A stretch of DNA of 19,717 bases. It comes from a bacterium (GTDB taxonomy: Bacteria; Verrucomicrobiota; Kiritimatiellia; RFP12; CAIWXQ01). The notes beneath the pieces are model-generated. The model did not search any database, had not been told where the DNA came from, and was given only the letters and a program-made list of their open reading frames with translations. Position numbers and translations under genes: made by a program. Positions 3,401 to 18,053 of this stretch are shown one piece after another (position 1 is the stretch's first letter; the number at the start of each line of letters is the position of its first letter). Where the stretch lies: assembly GCA_037144015.1 (NCBI GenBank), contig JBAWXQ010000030.1, positions 1 through 19,717 on the forward strand, read 5' to 3'.

Positions 3401-3430
3401 TTGACATCAGCAGGCGCGGCGGATTAGAAT
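3401..3430 (+). promoter_or_regulatory. Near-consensus sigma70 promoter: -35 TTGACA (3401-3406), 18-bp spacer, -10 TAGAAT (3425-3430)
   Basis: Read directly from sequence. The -35 is a perfect match and the -10 matches TATAAT at 5 of 6 positions. It is followed by an AT-richer leader to the first gene of the gvp regulatory operon at about 3524. Confidence 0.55.
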
Positions 3431-3523: not shown

Positions 3524-4201
3524 TTGTCTTTCATGAAAGCCAGCACAGACCGGAAGCGCGTGAGCAACCGAACGCTGCTCTACTTTCCCATCGTCCACAG
3601 CCAGTCGGAGATGGGAAAGCTGGGTAAAACCATCCGGAAGGTGACGCAGCAAAAGCTGGGCCGACGCGTCTGGCAGCGCAAGGTTGACCTGGTTGACCGG
3701 TTCTGGGAGCACCTGGCGGAGATTGTCTTCCAGGACCTGGCCATACCTTACGCGCGAACGCGCGTTTATCAGGACGGTCTGCCGGTCTGCGACAAGGAGA
3801 TCGAGATCGTCACGGAGATTGCAAAACTGGGAAGCCCGAATCACCGGCTGCTCCTCCAGCTCCGGGAAAAGGGCGCCACGATCATGGGCACGGAATCCGC
3901 CGAACTGCTGATCAGGGAGTACCGCCTCGCCAAGGAGATCCTCAACGCCGGGGATGCCCGGGAGGCCCTGGAGCTCGAGGCGCAGCAGAAGGCGGCCGGC
4001 GAGCAGCTGCTGGAGAAGCGGGACGCGTTCATTGCGGCACGGATCGACCAGACGCTGCTGGCGGGCGAGACCGGGCTCCTGTTCCTGGGAATGCTGCACA
4101 GCCCGGTGGCCCGGTTGCCGCCGGACATCCGTGTGCTTTATCCGCTGGAGGGGCTGCTGGAAAAAGGCGGCCCCCTGGACAGCGAGGTACGCAAGCGATG
4201 A
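3524..4201 (+). CDS. Hypothetical protein, first gene of the gvp regulatory operon (start TTG at 3524, or ATG at 3533)
   Basis: 225-aa ORF with no recognisable domain and a helical, charged C-terminal half. The stop overlaps the start of the downstream NtrC-like gene (ATGA at 4198-4201), indicating translational coupling. Confidence 0.55.
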   Translation: MSFMKASTDRKRVSNRTLLYFPIVHSQSEMGKLGKTIRKVTQQKLGRRVWQRKVDLVDRFWEHLAEIVFQDLAIPYARTRVYQDGLPVCDKEIEIVTEIAKLGSPNHRLLLQLREKGATIMGTESAELLIREYRLAKEILNAGDAREALELEAQQKAAGEQLLEKRDAFIAARIDQTLLAGETGLLFLGMLHSPVARLPPDIRVLYPLEGLLEKGGPLDSEVRKR

Positions 4202-5625
4202 AAACCGCCCCCGCCCAGCCCGCCCCCGCCCAGCCCGCCCCCGCCCAGCCCGTACGCGCCCTGATCGTGGACGATGACGATGACGTGCGGAGCATGCTGA
4301 CGCTGATCCTGGAAAAGGAGGGGCTCACGGTGATGGCCGCTGCGGACGGCCAGACCGCGCTGCGCCTGCTCCAGTCGCCCCTGTCCGTCCCGGATGTCGT
4401 GCTGCTCGATGTGCGCATGCCGGGGCTCAGCGGCCTGGATGTCCTGGCGAAGATCCGCGAGATGGGAAACCAGCTTCCTGTGGTGCTGATCACGGCGTAT
4501 GCCGACGTGCGGCAGTCTGTCCAGGCGATGAAGTGCGGCGCCTATGATTACCTTACCAAGCCGTTCGACAATCGTGAGGTCGCGCGGGTCACGCTGCAGG
4601 CCTTGTCGGAAAAGCGGGTGAGCCGGCTGAATGCGGCCGGCTGCGCGCCGCTGGAGCACCTGACTCTGTTTACGAGCATGGGGGCGTCGGACGCCGTTGC
4701 CCGGATCACGTCGGATGTGCATCGCGTGGCCACGTCCGATTTTTCCGTCCTGCTCATCGGCGAAACGGGCGCGGGCAAGGATCTGGTGGCCGAGGCGATT
4801 CACCGGGGCAGCGCCCGGCGGGAGGCGCCCTTTGTCGCGGTCGACTGCGGGGCGATCCCCGAGGCGCTGCTGGAAAGCGAGCTGTTCGGGCATGAACGGG
4901 GGTCGTTTACCGGGGCGGACCGCCAGAAGGTGGGGAAGTTTGAGGAAGCCCACGGGGGCACGCTGTTTCTTGACGAGCTAGCCAATCTGCCCTTCGGGTC
5001 CCAGGCAAAACTGCTGCGCGCGATTCAGCGAAAGTCGATTTACCGGGTTGGCGGCACCAAGTTCATCGACGTCAATTTCCGGCTGATTGCCGCCTCCAAC
5101 CGGAGCCTGCGCAAGATGGTGGCCGCCGGCACGTTTCGCGAGGATCTGTATTACCGGCTGTGCGATTTCACCATCGATATTCCCGCGCTGCGGGAGCGGA
5201 AAATGGATGTGCTCTACCTTGCAAAAGTCTTTCTGGAGCAGGTGGAGGTCGAGCTGGGCAAGAAGACGGCGGGCCTTTCGGAAACGGCCGTGGAGGCGCT
5301 GGTCGCCTACGACTGGCCCGGGAACGTCCGCGAGCTCAAGGCGGTGATCCGGCGGGCCGTGCTGGTGGCTGCGGGGCCCATCACCGAGAAGGACCTCAAC
5401 ATCAGGCGCATTGCGATGCCGGCTTCGGCCGATGCGGCGGAGGATGCCCTGGCCTGGCAGGGGGGGTCGCTCCGGGAGATTGTGCAGCGGAGCGTGGTGG
5501 ATGTGGAACGGAAAGTCCTGGCCGGCGTCCTGCGGGTCACCGGCGGAAACAAGGCCAAGGCGGCGCGGCTGCTGCAGGTGGACTACAAGACCATGCACAC
5601 CAAGGTGAAGAAGTTCGGCATCTAA
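4198..5625 (+). CDS. gvrA: Sigma54-dependent response regulator (NtrC family: REC + sigma54-activation AAA+ + Fis-type HTH), GvrA-like
   Basis: REC: [17 protein letters not shown]...[17 protein letters not shown]...[10 protein letters not shown]...[11 protein letters not shown]+: [18 protein letters not shown] (Walker A), [23 protein letters not shown] (GAFTGA motif), GTLFLDEL (Walker B). C-terminal HTH: [23 protein letters not shown]. The symbol is by analogy to the Serratia gvrA regulator and is not proven. Confidence 0.85.
4206..4250 (+). repeat. Three tandem copies of a 15-bp unit (ccgcccccgcccagc) encoding (PAPAQ)3 at the N-terminus of the NtrC-like regulator
   Basis: Copies read at 4206-4220, 4221-4235 and 4236-4250. 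The repeat is in-frame, so copy-number change would alter only the N-terminal linker length. Confidence 0.85.
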
Positions 5626-5641
5626 ACGAAAGGTGGACACC

Positions 5642-6331
5642 ATGAGCAGAAACAACCCTGATCCGGACAAGCAGGCGGGAAAGCCTGCCGCCGGAGGCGG
5701 CCTCTTTAGCAGCCTGACCGACTTTCTGGAGTCGGCGGGGAAGCTGGCCGGCGCGGCCGGGCAGCGGAAGCCGTCGCACGCGGCGGGTGCCGGAGGCGGG
5801 GCAAAAGAGTCCGGCGCCGCGGGCGGTCCGGAGGCCGGCGCGGCGCGCGTGGGCGGGATCCTGAACAACCTGGCCGACCTGGCTGCGAAGCTGAAGGAAC
5901 TCTCGGAAAAAGGAGAATCCCTGTCTGAACAGGGAGAGTTCACGTTCCCGTCCAAAAAAGGCGGCATCAAGGGCGTGTATGGCTTCTCCGTGAAAACAGG
6001 GCTGGGCGAGAAGGGCGACCAGATCAAGGTCGAGCCGTTCGGCAACATCCGCAAGGACCAGAAGACCGGCGAGGCGGCGGTGCAGGAGATCAGCGAGCCG
6101 CTGGTGGATGTCTTTCCGGACACGTCCGGCACCACCCTGGTCGCCGAGATGCCGGGCATGGGCCCGGACGATATCTGCCTTGAAGTCCAGGACGACGTGC
6201 TGACGATCGCCGCGCAAAAGGGCGAGCGGAAGTACCGGAAGGAGCTGCTGCTGGGGCACCTGCTGGCGAAGGATCGCATCGCCGTGGTGTGCAACAATGG
6301 CGTCGCGACCATTCGCTGTGAGAAGCCATGA
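5642..6331 (+). CDS. gvpH: GvpH-like small heat-shock (Hsp20/alpha-crystallin) domain protein with a Gly/Ala-rich disordered N-terminal half
   Basis: The C-terminal segment VDVFPDTSGTTLVAEMPGMGPDDICLEVQDDVLTIAAQKGERKYRKELLLGHLLAKDRIAVVCNNGVATIRCEKP matches the Hsp20 fold pattern (V-D-E...L-I...G-L-I). An ATG at 5642 has an AAAGGTGG RBS at 5629-5636; the ORF table begins at GTG 5633. The position after the NtrC regulator is the same as gvpH in Serratia. The stop overlaps the next gene's start (ATGA). Confidence 0.7.
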   Translation: MSRNNPDPDKQAGKPAAGGGLFSSLTDFLESAGKLAGAAGQRKPSHAAGAGGGAKESGAAGGPEAGAARVGGILNNLADLAAKLKELSEKGESLSEQGEFTFPSKKGGIKGVYGFSVKTGLGEKGDQIKVEPFGNIRKDQKTGEAAVQEISEPLVDVFPDTSGTTLVAEMPGMGPDDICLEVQDDVLTIAAQKGERKYRKELLLGHLLAKDRIAVVCNNGVATIRCEKP

Positions 6332-8463
6332 AAACACAACCACCCGGGGCTGCCGCGCCCATCAAGCTGCGTGTGACCGAAGCCCTGACCAAGGATGTCG
6401 GGCGGGCCTTTGCCCGGATGGGCCCCGAGGATCTGGACCGGCTGCACCTCGCCGTTGGCGACACCGTGGAGGTGGAGGGAAAGCGCAAGGCCGTCTGCAA
6501 GGCGATGCCGGCCTACGCGGACCTTCGCGGACAGTCCCGCGTCCAGCTCGACGGATCCACCCGCGAGAACGCGGGCGCGGGGCTCGATGATCCGGTGAGC
6601 ATCCGCAGGATCTCCTGCCGCCCGGCGGATCGCGTGGTGCTCGCGCCGACCAACGTCGTGCCGGCGGACCGGGACCTGAAGTACATCGGGAGCCTGCTGG
6701 ACGGCCTGCCCGTTCTGGAGGGCGCCAAGATCCAGGCGGCCCTGTTCGGCAGCCGCTCCGCTTTCTTTCAGGTTGAATCCGTGATGCCCAAGGGCGCCGT
6801 GCTGATTCATTCCGGCACGACGCTCGTGATCGGCAAGGCCCAGGCAGAGGAGGGGGCGGGGGCGCTTTCCTACGAGGACATCGGCGGCCTGAAGTCGCAG
6901 CTCCAGCGCATCCGGGAGATGATCGAGCTGCCGCTGCGCTACCCCGAGGTGTTTCAGCGCCTCGGGATTGACGCGCCCAAGGGGGTGCTGCTGTACGGCC
7001 CGCCGGGATGCGGCAAGACCCTGATCGCCCGCGCCATCGCCCACGAGACCGATGCCAGCTTCTTTTCCATCAGCGGGCCGGAAATCATCCACAAGTTCTA
7101 CGGCGAAAGCGAAGCCCACCTGCGGAAGATCTTCGAGGAGGCGACAAAAAAAGGTCCCAGCATCCTGTTCATCGACGAGATCGATGCCATTGCCCCCCGG
7201 CGGGACAATGTGGTTGGCGACGTGGAGAAGCGGGTCGTTGCCCAGCTCCTCGCCCTCATGGACGGGCTGAACAAGCGGCAGAATGTGATCGTCATCGCCG
7301 CCACCAACATCCCCAATGCCCTTGACCCGGCCCTGCGGCGCCCGGGCCGGTTCGACCGGGAGATCGTGATCCCGATACCGGACCGGCGCGGCCGTCTGGA
7401 GATCCTGGAGATTCACAGCCGGGGGATGCCGCTGGCCGGTGACGTCCAGATGGAACACCTGGCGGAGATCACCCACGGCTTTGTGGGCGCGGACCTCGAG
7501 GCGCTTTGCCGGGAGGCGGCCATGGGCTGCCTCCGGCAGATCATGGGGGAGATCGACTTTAGCCAGGCGGGGATTCCGTACGAAACGCTCGCAAAGCTCG
7601 AGGTGCGCATGGAGGACTTCCTGTCCGCCCTGCGGGAGATTGAGCCGTCCGCCATCCGGGAGGTCTTTGTCGAATCGCCCAATGTACACTGGGGCGACGT
7701 CGGGGGTCTGGCCTCCTTGAAGCAGCGCCTGATCGAGGCCGTGGAGTGGCCCTTGAAGCATCCCCGGCTCTTTGAAAAAGGCGGCGTGACGCCACCCAAG
7801 GGGATTTTGCTGGTCGGCCCGCCGGGTTGCGGCAAGACCATGATGGCCAAGGCGATCGCCACCGAGAGCCAGGTCAACTTCATCTCGGTCAAGGGCCCGG
7901 CCCTGATGTCCAAGTGGGTCGGCGAATCGGAAAAGGGGATCCGCGAGATCTTCCACAAGGCCAGGCAGGCTGCGCCGTGCATCATCTTCTTTGACGAGAT
8001 TGACGCCCTGGTGGCGACGCGCAGCGCGGGCACCACCGACTCGCATGTCTCCGAGCGGATCCTGAGCCAGTTCCTGGCGGAGTTTGACGGGATCGACGAG
8101 CTCCGGGGGGTTCTTGTCCTGGGGGCCACCAATCGCCGGGACCTGCTGGATGCCGCCGTTCTCCGCCCAGGGCGGTTCGATGATATCGTCGAGATGACGT
8201 TGCCCGGCGAAGCAGACCGCGAGGCGATCTTCGCTGTGCATTTCCGCGGCAAGCCGCTGGCGAAGCAGATCAAGTGCGCGGCGCTGGCGGCAAAGACCGA
8301 CGGGTTCAGCAGCGCGGACATCGCCGCGGTTGCGCGCAAGGCCGCCATGACTGCGGTTCGCCGGGTCGTGAAGAGCCTGGAGTGTGGCGCGGCGGAAGAG
8401 CCGGAAATCCTGATCCAGCGCGAGGACGTTGACGACGCGCTGGAGGAAGTGCGCAGGCGGTAG
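6328..8463 (+). CDS. CDC48/p97/VAT-like AAA+ ATPase (N-domain plus two AAA modules, D1 and D2)
   Basis: N-terminal region KLRVTEALTKDVGRAFARM...LAVGDTVEVEGKRKAVCKA...SRVQLDGSTRENAGAGLDDPVSIR resembles the double-psi-barrel CDC48 N-domain. D1 has Walker A GPPGCGKTLIARAIAHE, Walker B ILFIDEIDAIAP and an SRH-like region VIVIAATNIPNALDPALRRPGRFDREIVI. D2 has Walker A GPPGCGKTMMAKAIATE, Walker B IIFFDEIDALV and LVLGATNRRDLLDAAVLRPGRFD. Total length is 711 aa, and the gene is translationally coupled to gvpH (ATGA). Confidence 0.85.
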   Translation: MKTQPPGAAAPIKLRVTEALTKDVGRAFARMGPEDLDRLHLAVGDTVEVEGKRKAVCKAMPAYADLRGQSRVQLDGSTRENAGAGLDDPVSIRRISCRPADRVVLAPTNVVPADRDLKYIGSLLDGLPVLEGAKIQAALFGSRSAFFQVESVMPKGAVLIHSGTTLVIGKAQAEEGAGALSYEDIGGLKSQLQRIREMIELPLRYPEVFQRLGIDAPKGVLLYGPPGCGKTLIARAIAHETDASFFSISGPEIIHKFYGESEAHLRKIFEEATKKGPSILFIDEIDAIAPRRDNVVGDVEKRVVAQLLALMDGLNKRQNVIVIAATNIPNALDPALRRPGRFDREIVIPIPDRRGRLEILEIHSRGMPLAGDVQMEHLAEITHGFVGADLEALCREAAMGCLRQIMGEIDFSQAGIPYETLAKLEVRMEDFLSALREIEPSAIREVFVESPNVHWGDVGGLASLKQRLIEAVEWPLKHPRLFEKGGVTPPKGILLVGPPGCGKTMMAKAIATESQVNFISVKGPALMSKWVGESEKGIREIFHKARQAAPCIIFFDEIDALVATRSAGTTDSHVSERILSQFLAEFDGIDELRGVLVLGATNRRDLLDAAVLRPGRFDDIVEMTLPGEADREAIFAVHFRGKPLAKQIKCAALAAKTDGFSSADIAAVARKAAMTAVRRVVKSLECGAAEEPEILIQREDVDDALEEVRRR

Positions 8464-8464
8464 G

Positions 8465-9265
8465 ATGAACCAGGGAATCTATCTGTTCTGCCTGACGCCG
8501 GAAAACGACCGGCTGGTGCTGGCGGACGCCGGAGACGATCCGGCGCAGCCGCTTGCAGCCGCGGCCGTCGCCGGAGTCACCGCCATTGTTGCTCCGGTTT
8601 CCCTGAATGACTTCTGCGGCCCGGAGTCCCGCGCGCGGCTGGCGGACCTGGCATGGGTGGGGCCGCGGGCGCAGCGTCACGAAGAGGTCATCCTGGCCGT
8701 GATGCGCCAGGCGCCGGTGCTGCCGGTGCGGTTCGGGAGCGTGTTCTCCTCCCTGGCGGCGCTGTCGGCTTCGCTGGAACGGCAGCGTGAGGCCATGGCG
8801 CAGTTTTTCCTGGACACGGCCGGCCATCAGGAGTGGACGCTCAAGGCCTTTGTGGACCGGTCGCAGGCAAGGGCGAGGGTCATGGCCACACGGCTGGCGG
8901 CGGAGAAAGAACAGCTGGATGCGCTGGCGCCGGGGAAACGCTATCTGCAGGAGCAGAAGATCAATGGCGTCGTGGACCGGGAGGTGGCGTTCGGGCTCAA
9001 AAAGATGGCCGCCGGGATCAGCCTCTTCTTTCAGGAGGTGGCCCCTGTGTCCTGTGTCGGTCGCCTGCTGCCCCGGGACGTGACGGGGCGGGATGACGAA
9101 ATGTTTTTTCATTCCGCCCTGCTGGTGCCCGACGGCGCCGTCGCGCAGCTGCAGCGACTGGCCGCTGCGTGGAATGCCCGGCATGCGTCCATGGGGATGA
9201 TTCTGGAGGCCTCGGGCCCCTGGCCTCTCTACCATTTCACACCTGTCAGCAGCGCCGCGCCATGA
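8465..9265 (+). CDS. gvpF: Gas vesicle protein GvpF/GvpL family (paralog 1)
   Basis: Starts MNQGIYLFCL (ATG 8465). The C-terminal hallmark is SGPWPLYHF (GPWPPY[N/H]F-type motif of GvpF/L). Length is about 266 aa. The ORF table begins earlier at 8429, but that ATG overlaps the upstream stop. Confidence 0.8.
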   Translation: MNQGIYLFCLTPENDRLVLADAGDDPAQPLAAAAVAGVTAIVAPVSLNDFCGPESRARLADLAWVGPRAQRHEEVILAVMRQAPVLPVRFGSVFSSLAALSASLERQREAMAQFFLDTAGHQEWTLKAFVDRSQARARVMATRLAAEKEQLDALAPGKRYLQEQKINGVVDREVAFGLKKMAAGISLFFQEVAPVSCVGRLLPRDVTGRDDEMFFHSALLVPDGAVAQLQRLAAAWNARHASMGMILEASGPWPLYHFTPVSSAAP

Positions 9266-9269
9266 GCCT

Positions 9270-9995
9270 ATGGTCTACCTGGTCTATGGAATTTTGAAAG
9301 CTTCGGCCGCCGGCAGCGGACCGCTGGCGGGCGTGCGGGGCGCGTGCGTGACCATCGTCACCGCGCATGGCCTCGCTGCGGCCATCTCGCAGCTGGATGC
9401 GGCGGTTCATGCGCCCTCCGTGGACGAGCTGCTTGTCTATGGCCGGGTGGTGGATGCGCTTTTCCGCCGGCAGGCGGTGGTCCCGTTGCGATATGGCTGT
9501 TTTTTGAACGGGCCGGCGGCGGTCGAGGCGGTTCTGGAAGCGAAAAAAGATTCTTGCGAAGCCCTGCTGGCGGAGCTGGACGGGCAGGCGGAGATGGGGA
9601 TCCGGATTCTGCTGCCCGCAGGTGCAGAGACGGTGCCGCCCGCGGCGCAGCCGGTGGATGGCAGCGCGTATCTTGCCCGGCGGAAGGCGCACTACCAGAT
9701 GCAGGAGGCCGACGCCCGGCAGCATCAGGCGCTGCTGGACCGGTACGTGCAGGCCCTGGCCGGACTGAATGGAAAGCACCGGACCGAGACAGCCACGCGC
9801 GACGGCGCGGTCGCCCTGTCGCTCGATTATTTGATTCCGAAGAGCCAGGTCAGCGCGTTTCGGGAGATCTTTCGCGGGGTGGCGGCGCAGGAAGGCACCC
9901 GGGTTCAGCTCAGCGGCCCGTGGCCGCCGTACAATTTTTCCATGCCGTCCGACCTGACGGCGCCAAGGGGCCGGTCGGATAGGAGGTTGCCGTGA
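9270..9995 (+). CDS. gvpL: Gas vesicle protein GvpF/GvpL family (paralog 2)
   Basis: Starts MVYLVYGIL and ends ...QLSGPWPPYNFSMPSDL. This is the canonical GvpF/L architecture, at 241 aa. It is tandem to the previous GvpF/L, as with gvpF2-gvpF3 of Serratia. Confidence 0.8.
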   Translation: MVYLVYGILKASAAGSGPLAGVRGACVTIVTAHGLAAAISQLDAAVHAPSVDELLVYGRVVDALFRRQAVVPLRYGCFLNGPAAVEAVLEAKKDSCEALLAELDGQAEMGIRILLPAGAETVPPAAQPVDGSAYLARRKAHYQMQEADARQHQALLDRYVQALAGLNGKHRTETATRDGAVALSLDYLIPKSQVSAFREIFRGVAAQEGTRVQLSGPWPPYNFSMPSDLTAPRGRSDRRLP

Positions 9996-11572
9996 ATGAA
10001 AACCCGGAAAATCCGGCTGTCCCGGCTGTCGCCCTGCGGTATGGAAAACTCTACGAAATGCTGCTGGAGGCGATTCCCTTCTCGGTCCTCCTGATTCTGC
10101 CAAGCCTGCGCATTCATTCGGCAAATCGCAATTTTTTGAACAAGAGCCAGAAGGCCCTGCCGGATGTCGTGGGGCACCGGATCGAGGACGTCTTTCCCGC
10201 CGTGATCTGCGAGCAGATGGCGATTACCCGGCGTATCCGCAACGTCTTCGAAACCAACCACCCGGTCGAGGGCGACCGGATGACCTACCGGGCGCCGGGC
10301 GTGCCCCTGCGCATCTATTACTACAGCCTGCTCCCGTTCATCTGGCAGGGGCGGACAGAAGGCGTGCTTCTGCTGATGAATGATATGACGGAGCAGGTGC
10401 GCCTCGGCGAAGAGGTGCGGCGGGTGGAGCAGCACCTGGCCAGCATTGTGGACAGCGCCAGCGACCTCATCCTCTCGACTGATTTGGCGGGCCGGATCCT
10501 GACGTGGAATACCACGGCAGAGCGGCTCTCGGGATATGCCGCGGCCGAGGCGCGCGGGCGGAGCTTTGCCGAATTCTGCGCCGGGGAGAGTGCGGACATC
10601 CAGGGCGTTTTCGCGCGGGACGGAGTCCAGAGCCGGGAGTGGCTCTTCAAGACGAGGCAGTCGGAGCTGCTGCTCGTCGCCTGGGGCTTCTCGCCGCTGC
10701 TGGATCACCAGGGGCAGGCCGTCGGGGTCGTGTGCGTGGGGCGGGACCTGACGGAACGGCGGAAGTTCGAGATGGAACTGGTCCAGTCCCAGAAGATGGC
10801 GGCGCTGGGTGTCATGGCCGGCGGCATTGCCCACGAGATCCGGAACCCGCTGGCCAGCTGCTCGTCGGCCGCCCAGTTCCTCGCCGACGAAAAGGTTATT
10901 TCGCCGGAGTTTCTCCGGGAGTGCGCGGAGACGATCCGGCGCGGGGTCCGGCGGGCGTCCACGATCATCGAGAATCTTCTGCGCTACGCGCATCCCGACA
11001 CGCCGATCCATCCGTCGCCTGTCAATTTGGTTGACCTGATCACTGAAACGCTGGCCCTGGTGGCGGCTCACGCCAGGCTGAACCAGGTCGAGACGGGAAC
11101 GTCGTTTGCCAGTGCCCCGGCCATGGTGCAGGGCGTGGGCACGCTGCTGCAGCAGGTTTTCATGAACCTGTTCCTGAATGCGATTCAGGCCATGCCCACC
11201 GGGGGACGACTGCAGGTGGTTTTGGACATGGAGGATGGCGGCCTCCGGGTCCGGGTGATCGACTCGGGCTGCGGCATCCGGAAGGAAAACATCCAGAAGG
11301 TCTTTGACCCATTCTATACGACGTCGACCGCCAAGGATGGCACCGGGCTTGGGCTGGCCATCTGCTACACGGTGATGAAGCAGCACGGCGGCAGCATCGC
11401 GATTGAAAGCAATGTGGGGTCTGGCTGCACGGTCACGGTCCGTTTTCCCCGCCCGGGCGCCTCACGCGCAGGATCCGAAAGCCGGCCGTCGCACGTTTCG
11501 CTGCCCGGCGGTCATGAAACGGAAGCACATGCCGTGTTTTCGGGAAGCAATTCCATAGCCTCCCGGCCATAG
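9992..11572 (+). CDS. gvrB: PAS-domain sensor histidine kinase (HisKA + HATPase_c), GvrB-like
   Basis: Starts at GTG 9992, with an AGGAGG RBS at 9981-9986. The H-box is [11 protein letters not shown], the N-box LNAIQA, G1 VIDSGCGI and G2 GTGLGLAI. Upstream PAS-like region: [24 protein letters not shown]. No obvious TM segments, so it is probably cytoplasmic. Confidence 0.85.
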
Positions 11573-11579
11573 TCTCCCG

Positions 11580-11619
11580 GCGCATGGCAGAAACATGCGC
11601 ATTGTTGGCTGTTTTTTGC
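11580..11619 (+). terminator. Hairpin GCGCATG-gcagaaa-CATGCGC followed by a T-rich tract (tgttttttg). Possible intrinsic terminator of the regulatory operon, or an enhancer-binding-protein site
   Basis: A perfect 7-bp inverted repeat at 11580-11586 / 11594-11600. A T6 run at 11612-11617 follows 11 nt after the stem. It sits between the histidine-kinase stop (11572) and the sigma54-like element at 11631. Confidence 0.45.
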
Positions 11620-11630
11620 GAATCTCTGTT

Positions 11631-11645
11631 TGGCACGATTCCCGC
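11631..11645 (+). promoter_or_regulatory. Candidate sigma54 promoter: TGGCACG-attc-CCGC, with -24 GG and -12 GC at consensus spacing
   Basis: tggcacgattcccgc read at 11631-11645. GG at 11632-33 and GC at 11644-45 are 12 nt apart, as in the TGGCACG-N4-TTGC consensus. It lies about 74 bp upstream of the gvpA ATG, and an NtrC-family activator is encoded in the same island. Confidence 0.5.
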
Positions 11646-11718
11646 GTATACCCACTTACCGCATGCATGGGTATGTGTGCGGATTCGAGTTACAGAATCA
11701 ACGCAATGGAGACGAGCA

Positions 11719-11937
11719 ATGGCAAAGATTCAGAAATCAACGGATTCCTCGAGCCTGGCCGAGGTTGTCGACCGCATCCTGGACAAGGGTATTGTCATCG
11801 ATGCGTGGGTGAAGGTGTCGCTGGTCGGCATCGAGCTGCTCTCGGTCGAAGCGCGCGTCGTGATCGCGTCTGTTGAGACGTATCTCAAGTACGCCGAGGC
11901 GATTGGTTTGACGGCCAATGCCGCCACGCCTGCCTGA
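11719..11937 (+). CDS. gvpA: Gas vesicle structural protein GvpA (major shell protein)
   Basis: [64 protein letters not shown] is the highly conserved GvpA core. Length is 72 aa. A GGAG RBS at 11708-11711 lies 7 nt before the ATG. Confidence 0.95.
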
Positions 11938-12051: not shown

Positions 12052-12666
12052 ATGAAGAAGCTGGCCGAAGCAGAGAAGAAGCATTGCGCGAAACGGGTGG
12101 CCTTTCAGACCAATCTGACCGTTGAAGTGAAGTCCATGCTGACGGAATTTTCCAAGACGCGGCGCGAGCTGGCCCGCATCGCAAGTGAGGAACGCAGGGC
12201 GCTGCTGCTGGAGATCCGGAAGCAGGTCGCGGGTTTGCGCACCCTGACGAGCCAGGTGCAGGCAGGCGCACCGCGTGCCCTCGCCGTGCCGTTGGCCGTT
12301 CCGGCTCCGAAAATCAAGATTTTCGGGGCGTCGATCATCGTCCAGAAGGCGAAGACCGACAGCGGCATAGTCCCTCTGTTGCCCAGCGTCAATACGCCGA
12401 AAATGCCGGTGTTTGTGGCGCCGGTTCAGGTGAAAGTCGAACCCCCCAGGGCCGAAATGATCGCCCCCCCGGCCCTGCCGAAACCGGCACCGGTCAAGGT
12501 GGCCAAGGTGGTCGAACCGCGCATGGTTGAACCCAGGGCAAAGCCGGTCGCGCCTCCCGTGGCCAGTCGCCCACTGAAGAAGGAAGCGCATGACGGGTGG
12601 CTGGACGAAATTTTTGGCAAGAGCGCGACCAGCGCGACCAAGGCGAAGCGGAAGAAAAAGAAGTAG
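12052..12666 (+). CDS. Hypothetical coiled-coil / Pro-rich / Lys-tailed protein in the gvpC position
   Basis: The N-terminus MKKLAEAEKKH...RELARIASEERRALLLEIRKQVAGLRTL is predicted helical. The middle is Pro/Val/Lys-rich with short repeats (VEPPRAEM, VEPRMVEPRAKPVAPPVASRP). The C-terminus is KAKRKKKK. It lies immediately downstream of gvpA and the hairpin. No 33-aa GvpC repeats are visible. Confidence 0.6.
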   Translation: MKKLAEAEKKHCAKRVAFQTNLTVEVKSMLTEFSKTRRELARIASEERRALLLEIRKQVAGLRTLTSQVQAGAPRALAVPLAVPAPKIKIFGASIIVQKAKTDSGIVPLLPSVNTPKMPVFVAPVQVKVEPPRAEMIAPPALPKPAPVKVAKVVEPRMVEPRAKPVAPPVASRPLKKEAHDGWLDEIFGKSATSATKAKRKKKK

Positions 12667-12671
12667 GAAGC

Positions 12672-13046
12672 ATGACGCGGCGTAGATCAGTCAGGAGTAC
12701 GGTTGCATTCATCGAAGGGGTTTGCGCTTTTTGCCGCGGCAAAGGTGTGGACCCCTTCGCTGTCATGTCGGCGCGCTCCACGTGCTGCGTGTGCTCGGGA
12801 ACATGCAAGGTGCGGGTTCGTGCGCCGATTATTTCCTGCGCGCACTGCCGCGGCACGGGGGCTGTCAAAACCTTGACTTGTACGGTCTGTGGCGGCAAGG
12901 GCTCGGTTCACCGGCCGGCGCAGCCAACGAGGGTCTGCCCGGTTTGTCACGGCACGGGCGACGATGCCTCCGCGCCGGCCATGGACTGTTTGAAGTGCCG
13001 GGGACGCGGTTGTGTCACCGGAGTGAAGCCAACTAAGGGAGCCTGA
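12672..13046 (+). CDS. DnaJ-type zinc-finger (CxxCxGxG repeat) protein, BSD2-like stand-alone cysteine-rich domain
   Basis: Six CxxCxGxG-type motifs in 124 aa: CAFCRGKG, CCVCSGTC, CAHCRGTG, CTVCGGKG, CPVCHGTG, CLKCRGRG. AGGAAG lies 5 nt before the ATG at 12672. There is no J-domain. Confidence 0.75.
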   Translation: MTRRRSVRSTVAFIEGVCAFCRGKGVDPFAVMSARSTCCVCSGTCKVRVRAPIISCAHCRGTGAVKTLTCTVCGGKGSVHRPAQPTRVCPVCHGTGDDASAPAMDCLKCRGRGCVTGVKPTKGA

Positions 13047-13051
13047 TCGTC

Positions 13052-14029
13052 ATGAGTCGTAATTCCACCAAAGTTGAATCCCTGCCGACCGTACGCGTGC
13101 CGACGACGGCGGACGGCGTCCAGCCAGAAGCCGGCGACAGTTTCGTGTCTTCCGCTTACGTCGAGCAGGTCACCAAGCGTGCGCTGGCATACCTGATCGC
13201 CGGATACGCCGTCCATTTCTCGGGCGTGGCGGGAACGGGCAAGACGACCATGGCGTTCCATGTGGCATCCAAGCTGGGCCGGCCGGTCACGCTGGTGCAC
13301 GGGGATGACGAGTTCGGCAGCTCCGACCTGGTTGGGCGCGACGGCGGCTACAAGAAGCACAAGGTGGTCGACAACTTCATCCACTCCGTCCTGAAGACGG
13401 AAGAGGAGTCGCGGAACTTCTGGGTGGATGATCGGCTCACCACGGCATGCAAGACCGGGGAGATCTTTATTTACGACGAGTTCAACCGCTCCCGCCCGGA
13501 GGCCAACAACGCCCTGCTGAGCGTTCTTTCCGAGGGCATTCTGAACCTGCCGAAGCTCCGCCAGTCGGGGGAGGGCTACCTGACCGTGCACCCGGAGTTC
13601 CGCGCCATCTTCACCTCGAACCCCGAAGAATACGCCGGCGTCCACAAGACGCAGGATGCCCTGATGGACCGCCTGATCACCATCCACCTGGAGCACTACG
13701 ACCGGGAAACAGAGGTCATGATCGTCAAGCGGAAGTCCGGCCTGCCGCTGGAGGATGCCGAGCGGATCGTGGACATGGTGCGCGAGCTGCGCATGTTCGG
13801 GGTGAACAATCACCGCCCGACCATCCGGGCCGGCATTGCCATCGGGCGGATCCTGTTCTCCCAGAAGCGCCGCGCCCGTGCGGACGACGAGTTCTTTCTG
13901 CTGGTCTGCCGCGATGTGCTGGCCACCGACACGGCCAAGGTCACCCATGGCGGCCAGCCGCTGATGCTGGAAAAGGTGGAAGAGGTTCTTCGCCGGGTCT
14001 GCAGTCCGGGCAAGACAGGCCGGAAATAG
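13052..14029 (+). CDS. gvpN: Gas vesicle protein GvpN (AAA+ ATPase of the CbbQ/NirQ/NorQ/GvpN family)
   Basis: Walker A is FSGVAGTGKTTMAFHVA, Walker B IFIYDEFNRS. TSNPEEYAGVHKTQDALMDRL and the overall length of 325 aa match the GvpN family. Confidence 0.85.
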   Translation: MSRNSTKVESLPTVRVPTTADGVQPEAGDSFVSSAYVEQVTKRALAYLIAGYAVHFSGVAGTGKTTMAFHVASKLGRPVTLVHGDDEFGSSDLVGRDGGYKKHKVVDNFIHSVLKTEEESRNFWVDDRLTTACKTGEIFIYDEFNRSRPEANNALLSVLSEGILNLPKLRQSGEGYLTVHPEFRAIFTSNPEEYAGVHKTQDALMDRLITIHLEHYDRETEVMIVKRKSGLPLEDAERIVDMVRELRMFGVNNHRPTIRAGIAIGRILFSQKRRARADDEFFLLVCRDVLATDTAKVTHGGQPLMLEKVEEVLRRVCSPGKTGRK

Positions 14030-14367: not shown

Positions 14368-14601
14368 CGGCGTGCAGGAGGTTGTAATGCTGCTCATCAG
14401 TGACTCAAGTCATATTCGTACGAACCGTCACCGCAGGGGCCCCCGGGCCTGCCGGACGCTGACGGGGTTTTTCACAGGCCGCGGCGAGGCGCAGCGCGTC
14501 TGCCATGCGCACGTGAATCTGCTGAACCGGCGGCTCCGGTTGGCCTGGCTCAGCCGCCAGTGGGTTGGGCATCAGGAAAGAATGGCATTCAGTAAGGAAC
14601 A

Positions 14602-14808
14602 ATGGACATGAAAATCAACTGTTTATCCTGTGGTCATAACATCACGCTTGAGGATGAGACGTATAACGATTACGAGGGCGCGATCAAATGCTTTGCCTGC
14701 AGCGCGATTCTGGAGGTCAAGCTGGCGGAAGGGTGCGTCAAGTCGGTGAAAATTCATGCGACACAAACCGGCCGCGCGGCCGATGGGCCGGGCAAGCACA
14801 GGGCGTAA
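14602..14808 (+). CDS. Small zinc-ribbon protein (CxxC...CxxC), with lower GC than its neighbours
   Basis: M(D)MKINCLSCGHNITLEDETYNDYEGAIKCFACSAILEVKL contains two CxxC pairs about 19 aa apart. An AAGGAA RBS precedes ATG 14602/14608. The codon usage is conspicuously AT-richer than the surrounding genes. Confidence 0.45.
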   Translation: MDMKINCLSCGHNITLEDETYNDYEGAIKCFACSAILEVKLAEGCVKSVKIHATQTGRAADGPGKHRA

Positions 14809-15642: not shown

Positions 15643-16035
15643 GTGTTCCTGGTTGATGACATCATTCTTTCGCCGATCCGCGGCCTGATCTGGGTCTTTC
15701 GCGAGATTCACAGTGCCGCCGGCAAGGATCTTGCCGCGGAACCTGCGGCCATCACCGCCCGCCTCGGCGAACTCTACATGATGCTGGAGACCGGCCAGCT
15801 GAACGAGGCCGAGTTCGACGCCCAGGAGAAAACGCTTCTGGATCGCCTGGATTTCTTGAAGTCGGCTTCCGTCGGCGACGCGGAGGATGCCGGAGACGAC
15901 AGCGAAGAGAACGAGGCTGGCGAGGAGGATGAGCCGGACGGCGACGGCGAGGCGGAGGTTGCGGACAGACCAACGGATGGCGCGATGGATCGCGTGCGCC
16001 CCGGAGAACATTCCCAAGGACGGGCAGACTCGTGA
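15643..16035 (+). CDS. gvpG: Gas vesicle protein GvpG with an extended acidic C-terminal tail
   Basis: (GTG start) MFLVDDIILSPIRGLIWVFREI...LGELYMMLETGQLNEAEFDAQEKTLLDRLDFL matches the GvpG family pattern (compare B. megaterium GvpG: LHKLVTAPINLVVKIGEKV...LMRYE). The tail DAEDAGDDSEENEAGEEDEPDGDGEAEVAD is strongly acidic. The stop overlaps the start of the downstream ArsA-like gene. Confidence 0.7.
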   Translation: MFLVDDIILSPIRGLIWVFREIHSAAGKDLAAEPAAITARLGELYMMLETGQLNEAEFDAQEKTLLDRLDFLKSASVGDAEDAGDDSEENEAGEEDEPDGDGEAEVADRPTDGAMDRVRPGEHSQGRADS

Positions 16036-18053
16036 GGGACATGCAGAAATCATCCGGGTTCCCGCCGGCCGATAACCTGCCGCTGTTGCTTTTTGGAGGA
16101 AAGGGCGGCGTCGGCAAAACGACAGCCGCCACGGCGACGGCGCTCGACCTTGCTGTTCGGAACCCGGGGCAGTCCATTCTTCTGGTTTCCACGGATCCCG
16201 CGCACTCCCTGCGAGACAGCTTTGCCGGTGACAAGCCGCCGCCGAACCTGACGGTGCTGGAGCTGGATGCCGGCGCCTGCCTGCAGGCTTTCCAGGCGGA
16301 GAACCGGCAGCGACTCCTGGAGATCGCCTCGCGGGGAACCTTTCTGGACGGCGAGGACATCGACCGGTTTCTGGCGCTATCCCTTCCGGGCATGGATGAG
16401 CTCATGGGGTTTATGGAGATCAACCGCTGGGTCCGGGATGGCACCTATGCCCGGATTGTCGTGGATACGGCGCCCACCGGGCACGCCCTGCGGCTGATGG
16501 GGATGCAGGCGCAGATGCAGAAGTGGCTGCAGGCGCTGGACGCTCTGCTGGCCAAGCACCGGTACATGAAGAAGCTTTTCCAGGGGCACTATGAGCGCGA
16601 CGACCTCGACCGCTTCATCGAGGGCCTCGCCGACTCCGTCCAGGCGACAGGCGCGCGGCTCATGGATCACCAGCAGTGCCGCTTTGTTCCGGTGATGCTG
16701 GCCGAAGCCTTGAGCGTCGAGGAGACGCTGGACCTGATCCGGGAGCTGCGCCGGCTGGGCATCGGGACGGATCATGTGGTGGTCAATCGCCTGTATCCGG
16801 AAAGCGGCTGCGATCTGTGCCGGGCCGTGCGCGGCCAGCAGCTGCAGGAACTTGCGCGGCTGGCGGATGCGGCGCTTTTTTCCGGCAAGCAGCTTTGGGG
16901 CGTCCCCATGTATCCGCTGGAAATCAAGGGGCTGGAGGGCCTGCGCGCCTTCTGGAAGGGGCTCGCGCCGATCCCGACGTCCTGCGCGGAACGTCCGTGC
17001 GCCCGGCCACGAATCGCTCCGCGCGTCGACAACCCCGCTCCGCTGCCGCCGCCGGACACGACGCTGCTGGTCTTTGCCGGCAAGGGTGGGGTTGGCAAGA
17101 CCACCCTGGCCTGTGCCACGGCCCTGCGCCTGGCCCATGAGCACCCCGGGAAGCGAGCCCTGCTTTTCTCCGCCGATCCCGCCCACTCGCTGGCCGACTG
17201 TCTGGGGCTGCCCGTGGGCCCCGTCCCGGAGCAGGTGGTGCCGGGCCTGTGGGCCATGGAAATGGACGCCCCCGCCGGGTTTGCTGCGTTGAAAGAGCAG
17301 TACCGCAAGGAGCTGGAGCAGTTTCTCGCGCGTCTGATGCCGAACCTCGACCTGACGTTCGATCGTGAAGTGATGGAGCGGATCATGGATCTGTCGCCCC
17401 CGGGGATTGATGAGCTGATGGCCCTTGCGGCGGTGATGAACCATCTGTCTCCGGAGGGGTACGACATCCTGATCCTTGACGCGGCTCCGACCGGGCACTT
17501 GATCCGGCTGCTGGAGTTGCCGGAGATCATTGAGAACTGGCTGAAGGTGGTGTTCAGCATTTTCCTCAAGTACCGGAACATCTTCCGCCTGCCGGGAATC
17601 TCGGCGCGCCTGATCGGCCTGTCCAAGGACCTGAAGCGCCTGCGGGCAGTTCTGCGCGATCCGTCCCGCGCGGGCCTCTACAGCGTCAGCATCCTCACGG
17701 AAATGTCCTTTGCGGAGACGGGGGACCTCCTGGCTGCCTGTGAGCGTCTGGCCATTCCGGTTTCCGGCTTGTTTTTGAACCTGGCAACGCCGGATTCCGC
17801 CGACGCCCTCTGCGCATCGATTTTCGCCCGTGAGTCGCAAACCCGGGCGCGCATCGCGGCGGCGTTTCCCGGCACGCCGCAGACGCTTGTGTATCGGCAA
17901 AGCGAACCGCGGGGCACGGCAAACCTGGCGGCGCTGGGAATGCAACTCTACCTGCCGCCTGGCGACGGAGCCGGGCAGGCGCGAACGGCCGTCGGCAGCA
18001 GACGCCGGACGGAGCGAAGCCGGTCGCCAACCGGTGAGGTTTTGTATGCCTGA
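16032..18053 (+). CDS. Fused tandem ArsA/GET3-family ATPase (two deviant-Walker-A P-loop NTPase halves)
   Basis: Half 1: LLLFGGKGGVGKTTAATATA, DPAHSL, and the A-loop/switch II VVDTAPTGHALRL. Half 2: LLVFAGKGGVGKTTLACATA, DPAHSL, ILDAAPTGHLIRLL. A CDLC (CxxC) lies in the first half (PESGCDLCRAV). The protein is 673 aa. Start is GTG 16032 or ATG 16041, and the stop overlaps the ATG of the next gvpA-like gene (18046). Confidence 0.85.
   Translation: MRDMQKSSGFPPADNLPLLLFGGKGGVGKTTAATATALDLAVRNPGQSILLVSTDPAHSLRDSFAGDKPPPNLTVLELDAGACLQAFQAENRQRLLEIASRGTFLDGEDIDRFLALSLPGMDELMGFMEINRWVRDGTYARIVVDTAPTGHALRLMGMQAQMQKWLQALDALLAKHRYMKKLFQGHYERDDLDRFIEGLADSVQATGARLMDHQQCRFVPVMLAEALSVEETLDLIRELRRLGIGTDHVVVNRLYPESGCDLCRAVRGQQLQELARLADAALFSGKQLWGVPMYPLEIKGLEGLRAFWKGLAPIPTSCAERPCARPRIAPRVDNPAPLPPPDTTLLVFAGKGGVGKTTLACATALRLAHEHPGKRALLFSADPAHSLADCLGLPVGPVPEQVVPGLWAMEMDAPAGFAALKEQYRKELEQFLARLMPNLDLTFDREVMERIMDLSPPGIDELMALAAVMNHLSPEGYDILILDAAPTGHLIRLLELPEIIENWLKVVFSIFLKYRNIFRLPGISARLIGLSKDLKRLRAVLRDPSRAGLYSVSILTEMSFAETGDLLAACERLAIPVSGLFLNLATPDSADALCASIFARESQTRARIAAAFPGTPQTLVYRQSEPRGTANLAALGMQLYLPPGDGAGQARTAVGSRRRTERSRSPTGEVLYA

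Follow-up and report, generated by a model that had tools for sequence, protein, structure and literature searches.

Why would a bacterial gas-vesicle cluster encode a CDC48-type protein unfoldase directly beside a small heat-shock protein (sHsp)? The question is raised by contig JBAWXQ010000030.1 of assembly GCA_037144015.1 (Kiritimatiellia, Verrucomicrobiota), a stretch of 19,717 nucleotides (nt) referred to here as the window, in which every plausible gene lies on the plus strand and which amounts to one gas-vesicle (gvp) cluster. The gene under study (6328-8463) had been described from the letters alone, in what we call the original prediction, as a CDC48-like unfoldase suggested to form, with the Hsp20-like GvpH, a dedicated quality-control or remodeling system. 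Our results indicate that this gene is very probably already known by name, as gvpZ, that its mechanism is uncharacterized, and that it offers a sound lead to a gas-vesicle quality-control module, not to a novel type of system.

Family comparisons supported the full N-D1-D2 architecture that had been proposed for the protein. It scored 884.4 bits against the NCBIfam model TIGR01243 (CDC48 family AAA ATPase; cutoff, 802.65), with residues 12-708 aligned to profile positions 2-710 of 733, and Pfam returned CDC48_N (E value of 3.5e-21, residues 13-95) together with two stretches each of AAA (1.3e-91) and AAA_lid_3. Of the Pfam families that the original prediction had expected, CDC48_N and AAA were thus matched, but CDC48_2 (PF02933), recorded for most close homologs, was absent from the 25 Pfam families listed for the window protein. 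The closest solved structure was Thermoplasma VAT (5g4f; E value of 5e-208), residues 7-631 of which aligned as one stretch with residues 12-621 of the window protein, followed by plant CDC48A and human p97. An antisense open reading frame (ORF) of 1,087 amino acids (aa) overlaps this region (4978-8241, minus strand); we take it as a spurious long ORF of the type found in DNA of ∼65% G+C, a reading with no family-library comparison behind it. The plus-strand reading matched CDC48 models at an E value of 6e-266, and these family scores ruled out that the CDC48 frame itself is a chance ORF of G+C-rich DNA. By family and motifs, therefore, the window gene is a real and intact CDC48/VAT-type unfoldase.

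Motif conservation was scored over 81 gvp-linked CDC48 sequences, with two haloarchaeal plasmid CDC48s aligned beside them. The two GPPGCGKT Walker A motifs, the two Walker B motifs (LFIDEIDA and IFFDEIDA) and the second region of homology (SRH) named originally were all located in the window protein, the SRH in both rings, each of which also has its arginine fingers. Machines of the CDC48 type unfold proteins as hexamers by threading them through a central pore, and the D1 pore loop, HKFYGESE, was identical in 80 of the 81 sequences; it is aromatic (KFYG), likewise the KYYG of the two haloarchaeal plasmid proteins, while VAT has KYYG and p97 KLAG. The D2 loop, K[Y/W/F]VGESE, was aromatic across the set, with KWVG in the window. 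Since the Walker A and B motifs, pore loops and arginine fingers of D1 and D2 are intact and kept across the 81 sequences, gvp-linked CDC48 is, judged from the alignment, a complete machine under strong purifying selection with both nucleotide sites intact, and the window protein is apparently a catalytically competent hexameric unfoldase. It shares with Thermoplasma acidophilum VAT (5g4f/5g4g) the N-D1-D2 organization, the Walker motifs and arginine fingers of both rings and the aromatic pore loops. It differs from VAT in being bacterial, in its fixed place beside an sHsp in gas-vesicle clusters, in having Cys in both Walker A motifs and in lacking a tail of the HbYX (hydrophobic-Tyr-X) type. 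Specifically, its C terminus reads ...EEVRRR instead of the required hydrophobic-Tyr-X end, and across the clade the tails vary (RGMG, EAAA and others), with no conservation of a penultimate Tyr. This makes docking to a 20S proteasome unlikely, so the unfolded product would have to be released or handed to another factor. As a separate observation, the Walker A Cys replaces, in both rings, the Thr seen in most of the compared CDC48s; it was kept in D1 in 79 of the 81 sequences and occurred in D2 in the common variants. Human p97 has a Walker A Cys in D2 only (Cys522), which is reportedly redox-sensitive, and the Cys pair raises the question of redox control in oxycline organisms.

To place the gene in its genomic setting, relatives of the window CDC48 were sought in one genome per GTDB species and the best 80 were kept (69 to 89% identity); the 80 loci were searched with all window proteins, and start codons for spacing were picked heuristically. 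These relatives spanned more than 10 phylum-level labels, including Victivallales/Lentisphaerae, Spirochaetota, many orders of Desulfobacterota, Acidobacteriota, Verrucomicrobiota, Planctomycetota, Omnitrophota, Rokubacteria, Methylomirabilia, Nitrospinia, Sumerlaeota and one metagenome-assembled genome of Clostridia, together with the cultured, gas-vacuolate Desulforhopalus vacuolatus DSM 9700. All loci with enough flank were gvp clusters with the core order orf225-GvrA-GvpH-CDC48-GvpF2-GvpF3(-GvrB), which is also the order of the window, where CDC48 lies, as had been claimed, between gvpH and tandem gvpF/L genes. GvpH, or its 3' end, stood directly 5' of CDC48 in 78 of the 80 loci, the remaining two being contigs with less than 305 nt of upstream sequence. 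The distance from the gvpH stop to the CDC48 start was at most 31 nt in 57 of these 78, some having the same 4-nt overlap as the window, in which the CDC48 ATG at 6328 overlaps the gvpH TGA (gccATGAaa) in accordance with the translational coupling proposed. Moreover, few cluster proteins were as well conserved as CDC48, and GvpA alone ranked consistently above it. The co-occurrence test suggested by the original prediction was thus strongly positive, and the linkage is strict, phylogenetically broad and beyond chance. As to variation in layout, two Geobacteraceae loci (L019 and L024) and one Desulfarculales locus (L036) had no orf225 homolog within 8 to 10 kb 5' of CDC48, and neither gvpF2 nor gvpF3 followed CDC48 in L036 and L050. 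Separately, a Logan contig (SRR29699976; L087 210-3284) has a 1,024-aa ORF with a CDC48 N domain and three AAA modules, which may be a natural variant or may have arisen by chimeric assembly.

Beyond this clade, the nearest representatives of clusters at 50% identity were 50 to 60% identical to the window CDC48, and the closest non-gvp relative found in a rough neighbor-joining tree (P0123, 55% identity) lies in an unrelated context. The plasmid search returned no plasmid-borne CDC48 more than 53% identical to the window protein; its top two matches, from Methylosinus sp. C49 and Methylocella tundrae (52 to 53%), are again inside gvp clusters, and their CDC48s adjoin the main gvp clade in the same tree, which is distance-based and carries no support values. 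Rhizobial and Methylobacterium plasmid copies had neither gvp nor Hsp20 neighbors. In Methylosinus and Methylocella the layout is a different one, ...gvpJ-gvp-gvpH-orf225 homolog-CDC48, with CDC48 at the end of the structural operon and away from gvrA. This bears on a regulatory role, in which CDC48 would remodel or destabilize GvrA, GvrB/GvrC or another factor and tune expression as in the GvpD-GvpE pair. The operon shared with gvrA and gvrB in the window and most relatives fits such a role, and haloarchaeal GvpD is a nucleotide-binding repressor whose presence leads to GvpE degradation (Pfeifer review, PMC9501494). However, the Methylosinus and Methylocella genes stand apart from the sigma-54 regulator and kinase, the neighbor that stays constant over the layouts is GvpH and no regulator, and the Serratia gvpZ mutant has no reported change in vesicle production (PMC10344784; PMC4982088), which leaves the regulatory role quite unlikely.

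The constant partner, GvpH, is a protein of the Hsp20/alpha-crystallin type. Its alpha-crystallin match was barely above the cutoff (PF00011, 21.3 versus 20.8 bits), and the archaeal Hsp20 model NF041800 matched at an E value of 5.6e-29, under the equivalog cutoff. In a profile of 79 GvpH homologs, which are typically 165 to 190 aa long, the conserved core covers about residues 73-231 of the window protein and begins at a helix at about residues 74-90, GGILNNLADLAAKLKEL. The window GvpH carries in addition a Gly/Ala-rich low-complexity extension of ∼70 aa (residues 1-72, 5633-5850) that is missing in most homologs; either the true start lies further downstream or a tail was added in this lineage. 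An Hsp20 gene directly 5' of, or overlapping, CDC48 was also observed with no gvp gene nearby on a Natrinema thermotolerans plasmid (L082 5756-8265) and on Halobacterium salinarum pNRC200 (L086 3564-6214). These two gvp-free pairs support a functional sHsp-unfoldase pairing and suggest an older sHsp-CDC48 module outside gvp clusters. Four of the six haloarchaeal plasmid loci inspected lacked the pairing, ruling it out as a universal archaeal rule. The proposed pairing of CDC48 with GvpH held over 78 of the 80 loci.

The same gvp-free pairs would be expected if the Hsp20-CDC48 cassette were a general proteostasis module that hitch-hikes in gvp clusters with no vesicle-specific client, and the small effect of its deletion in Serratia points the same way. 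Against this, the clade of at least 69% identity occurred in a fixed gvp-cluster position only, in all of the best 80 species from more than 10 phyla, and CDC48 conservation is near the top of the cluster, below GvpA alone. Fixed placement together with such conservation would hardly be expected of a protein with no function specific to the cluster, and we consider hitch-hiking very unlikely.

A third protein accompanies the pair. In Methylosinus and Methylocella, the gene that separates gvpH from CDC48, annotated as "hypothetical", proved to be an orf225 homolog (41% and 37% identity; E values of 4e-41 and 4e-39), so that orf225, GvpH and CDC48 occur together in two cluster layouts; that orf225 travels with GvpH and CDC48 in both is new here. 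An orf225 homolog was found in 63 of the 80 loci, and in 14 of the 17 negatives the upstream flank is under 2.2 kb, too short to reach it. The family has ∼1,350 members in the protein collection, and among the best 120 of these all named ones are "hypothetical", and none of the 120 has a Pfam domain recorded. The window and Methylosinus proteins share a weak match to the C-terminal part of TraB_PrgY_gumN (E value of ∼0.03), far below threshold for orf225 (PF01963, 14.7 versus 26.8 bits). An AlphaFold model built from 40 homologs (mean predicted local distance difference test score, 89; predicted template modeling score, 0.82) predicts a fold of the ChaN/TraB/erythromycin-esterase/TIKI hydrolase type. 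Strand 1 is followed by a His (PIVH, H25) that is invariant, as are a number of Glu, Asp and His positions, and a GxxH motif after the last core strand (GMLH) has H192 in at least 90% of sequences, a pattern that we take to match the TraB/TIKI/EreA/ChaN superfamily enzymes. A hydrolase activity may be inferred from this His pattern. ChaN itself is a heme-binding protein and not an enzyme. Compared with the TIKI/TraB-PrgY/ChaN/erythromycin-esterase superfamily, orf225 proteins are short (∼205 to 225 aa), and their Pfam match stays below threshold. By the evidence given below, orf225 probably belongs to the family of Serratia GvpY.

Synteny and primer-encoded peptides indicate that the window CDC48 is very probably an ortholog of Serratia GvpZ. 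In the published Serratia gvp gene order (PMC4982088), gvpZ likewise lies between gvpH and gvpF2, with gvrA 5' and gvrB 3'. The published gvpZ deletion primers (Table S3) encode the start MSEE and the 3' junction VRWEDVG; the gvpF2 5'-flank primer extends the peptide as (G)LDDVR, and gvpZ ends in ...AEMFGDDA* just 5' of gvpF2. The peptide VRWEDVG(G)LDDVR corresponds to PDVRWEDVGG, the D2-start motif in many of the 80 homologs, and the gvpY primer junction peptides, LIHFPI and QPLGKG, fit the orf225 consensus (LLYFPIVHS and RPLxK). Desulfomonile tiedjei DCB-1 was among the gvp clusters compared by Tashiro et al. in 2016 (PMC4982088), and in the Desulfomonile loci of the present set (L076 and L079) a CDC48 homolog occupies the gvpZ position, followed by gvpF2 and gvpF3, with GvpH upstream in L076 and only the gvpH 3' end on the L079 contig. 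The operons are split differently, since orf225 shares the gvrA operon in the window whereas Serratia gvpY ends the other operon. Serratia GvpZ was not among the top matches of three homolog searches or among 150 representatives. P0063, the sole motif match among 517 proteins, was rejected as GvpZ because it is a 1,024-aa triple-AAA protein on a 4-kb contig unrelated to Serratia. In the literature GvpV, W, X, Y and Z are listed as of "unknown function" (PMC4982088; PMC9501494), and a literature search on gas vesicles and CDC48 returned haloarchaeal papers only, none of which ties CDC48 to gvp clusters. The earlier statement that no such system had been characterized therefore holds for biochemistry in the searched literature, but the gene itself already has a name.

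Published genetics places gvpZ among the accessory genes. Serratia retains vesicles upon deletion of gvpC, W, X, Y, H or Z (PMC10344784; PMC4982088), and the dispensability of gvpY, gvpH and gvpZ in the native host is as expected of one accessory pathway. In Escherichia coli, deletion of gvpH, gvpY or gvpZ lowers or abolishes ultrasound signal and opacity (Hurt 2023, PMC10344784). Of the two outcomes that the original prediction regarded as damaging, scattered orthologs and a deletion with no effect on vesicles, the first was not observed, the orthologs being gvp-linked, and the second applies in part, as the gvpZ deletion leaves vesicles in Serratia; no report of collapse-recovery kinetics in gvpZ mutants was found in the literature searched. 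These genetics also bear on whether CDC48 could be an assembly motor that brings GvpA-family subunits to the growing shell or inserts them there and overlaps in function with GvpN. A further ATPase in a cluster that already carries GvpN and an ArsA/GET3-type ATPase might be so employed, but gvpZ is dispensable in Serratia, unlike gvpN, whose mutants arrest at bicones (PMC4982088), and CDC48 machines are established unfoldases and segregases, not insertases; such a motor is highly improbable. GvpN is a gvp-cluster-encoded ATPase as well, but this MoxR-like protein belongs to an unrelated, single-module AAA+ clade, as stated originally, and is needed for bicone-to-cylinder growth in Serratia (PMC4982088).

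GvpA-family proteins are very hydrophobic and aggregation-prone. Given this and the invariant GvpH partner, the simplest model is one of holdase and unfoldase, and we favor, with a little more confidence than doubt, the reading that CDC48 and GvpH act on aggregation-prone GvpA-family clients as a helper module in GvrA-regulated clusters of the Serratia type. GvpH would hold hydrophobic members of the GvpA family (GvpA itself and its J/M/S-type paralogs) or intermediates that have misassembled, and the CDC48 ring would thread these held clients through its pore with ATP, whereupon they may regain an assembly-competent state or pass on for removal. The GvpY-like protein might be a third member, conceivably acting as a peptidase or hydrolase, and the module would raise vesicle yield and fidelity while not being required for building vesicles. 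The Serratia genetics of gvpY, gvpH and gvpZ fits a dispensable helper of this kind. In IbpA/B with ClpB-DnaK and in the sHsp20-ClpG/ClpK heat-resistance loci, an sHsp holdase is likewise encoded beside a double-ring AAA+ threader, and the labor may by analogy be split in the same way, first holding and then unfolding, but the window ATPase is of the classical CDC48 clade and not Hsp100/Clp.

Several points weigh against this helper reading. The choice of client is an inference, and so are the quality-control role and the idea that CDC48 works together with GvpH and GvpY. To our knowledge, the gvp clusters of cyanobacteria, Bacillus and haloarchaea carry no cluster-encoded CDC48, and with many producers lacking it the function cannot be intrinsic to shell assembly. 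The equivalence with GvpZ rests on synteny and four short primer-encoded peptides. The in-frame gvpZ deletion in Serratia ATCC 39006 has no discernible vesicle phenotype (Tashiro 2016, PMC4982088; summarized in Hurt 2023, PMC10344784); judged by its primers, it apparently spans only codon 5 to the D2 start, and residual activity is therefore possible. In E. coli BL21-AI, yield rises on single deletion of gvpW, X, Y, H or Z (bioRxiv 10.1101/2024.10.30.621148), which argues against a generally beneficial chaperone role under overexpression.

A different client state, among the options named in the original prediction, is envisaged if CDC48 pulls GvpA from collapsed or obsolete vesicles for reuse or removal. 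CDC48/p97 machines do extract subunits from stable assemblies, both pore loops of the window protein are aromatic and conserved, and pressure on wild-type Serratia gives small bicone vesicles that later grow to a larger form (PMC4982088). A turnover phenotype is nowhere reported, however, and a holdase-type partner such as GvpH is better matched to non-native clients, whether soluble or aggregated, than to an ordered shell, so that we regard shell disassembly as unlikely. The quality-control or remodeling role proposed originally is the most plausible reading in general terms, but the present data do not separate disassembly and recycling from chaperoning of unassembled subunits. A more ambitious form of the helper reading, which we consider doubtful, is that the GvpY-like protein, GvpH and GvpZ constitute one self-contained machine for extracting and unfolding GvpA-family proteins and for processing or degrading them, a machine that has spread with gvp clusters across more than 10 phyla. 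If true, no bacterial CDC48 before GvpZ would have had a defined organelle client, and GvpZ would act in a proteasome-independent pathway with a TIKI-fold enzyme in the peptidase's place.

How GvpA-family proteins are kept soluble, delivered and proofread during shell assembly is an open question that limits heterologous expression for ultrasound reporter genes. The non-essential gvpY, gvpH and gvpZ, so far of "unknown function", can now be typed as encoding a predicted EreA/ChaN/TIKI-fold protein, an sHsp and a CDC48 unfoldase that co-occur across phyla. The typed trio yields a concrete, testable hypothesis of one quality-control pathway, which hints at why a single deletion can look silent and why its effects vary from host to host. 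It also provides a bacterial CDC48 that lends itself to study, with a natural client that is likely and without a proteasome.

Table 1. Features of the gas-vesicle cluster in the window, and plasmid homologs of orf225
Feature	Position	Strand	Evidence and remarks
Sigma-70-like promoter candidate	3401-3430	+	TTGACA-18-TAGAAT, 11/12; ~95 nt 5' of orf225; consensus match only
orf225, GvpY-like	3524-4201	+	Predicted ChaN/TraB/erythromycin-esterase/TIKI-type fold; stop overlaps gvrA start
GvrA-like sigma-54-dependent response regulator	4198-5625	+	Sigma54_activat 6e-66, Response_reg 2e-30, HTH_8 2e-9
GvpH, Hsp20/alpha-crystallin type	5633-6331	+	Pfam HSP20 just above cutoff
CDC48/VAT-type double-ring AAA+ ATPase, probable GvpZ ortholog	6328-8463	+	711 aa; motifs, Pfam, NCBIfam, structure match
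CDC48 N domain	6361-6852	+	~Residues 12-175
CDC48 D1	6862-7677	+	~Residues 179-450
CDC48 Walker A motifs	6997-7020 and 7816-7839	+	Residues 224-231 and 497-504
CDC48 D2	7690-8460	+	~Residues 455-711
GvpF/L paralog, GvpF2 position	8466-9265	+	GvpL_GvpF 5e-39; likely ATG 2 nt past CDC48 stop; mechanical call TTG 8429
GvpF/L paralog, GvpF3 position	9270-9995	+	GvpL_GvpF 7e-43
GvrB-like PAS histidine kinase	9992-11572	+	HATPase_c, HisKA, PAS; end of tight block
GvpA	11584-11937 (mechanical ORF)	+	117 aa; Gas_vesicle domain from residue 57
CxxCxGxG-repeat protein	12597-13046	+	Probable start near 12672; six repeats, DnaJ central zinc-finger type
GvpN	13052-14029	+	TIGR02640, 324 bits
Small ORF	14372-14611	+	79 aa; between gvpN and gvpF1; no curated family
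Small ORF, zinc-ribbon-like	14602-14808	+	68 aa; between gvpN and gvpF1; no curated family
ArsA/GET3-type ATPase, two-domain	16032-18053	+	673 aa; between gvpG and gvpK
orf225 homologs on alphaproteobacterial plasmids	L081 8408-8989; L083 8376-8933

Within the window, seven genes (orf225-gvrA-gvpH-CDC48-gvpF2-gvpF3-gvrB) form a block with gaps of at most 8 nt or overlaps, and the promoter candidate listed in Table 1 is a possible start of this operon; two sigma-70-type sites were found in the 9.2-kb region versus 0.8 expected. The sigma-54 promoter scan gave two one-mismatch matches versus 1.9 expected, which is chance level, and the terminator scan inside the operon gave 7 versus 6.0 expected, which is background level. 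Downstream of gvrB follow GvpA, an uncharacterized ORF, the CxxCxGxG protein, GvpN, the small ORFs, GvpF, GvpG, the ArsA/GET3-type ATPase, GvpK and a GvpJ/S-type protein. The 117-aa GvpA frame is probably an over-call, the true start being the internal Met at about 11719, which gives a typical 72-aa GvpA (MAKIQKS...). The CxxCxGxG-repeat protein, directly 5' of gvpN and with homologs in many related clusters, fell just short of its Pfam cutoff (32.6 versus 32.7 bits) and may be a further chaperone-like component. Both small ORFs recur at the same site in many of the 80 loci. The ArsA/GET3-type ATPase is conserved in many related loci, and Castillo and Saier pointed out in 2010 that ArsA homologs occur in gvp clusters (PMC2963123). 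The window cluster thus encodes three different ATPases, namely, GvpN, CDC48 and the ArsA/GET3-type protein.

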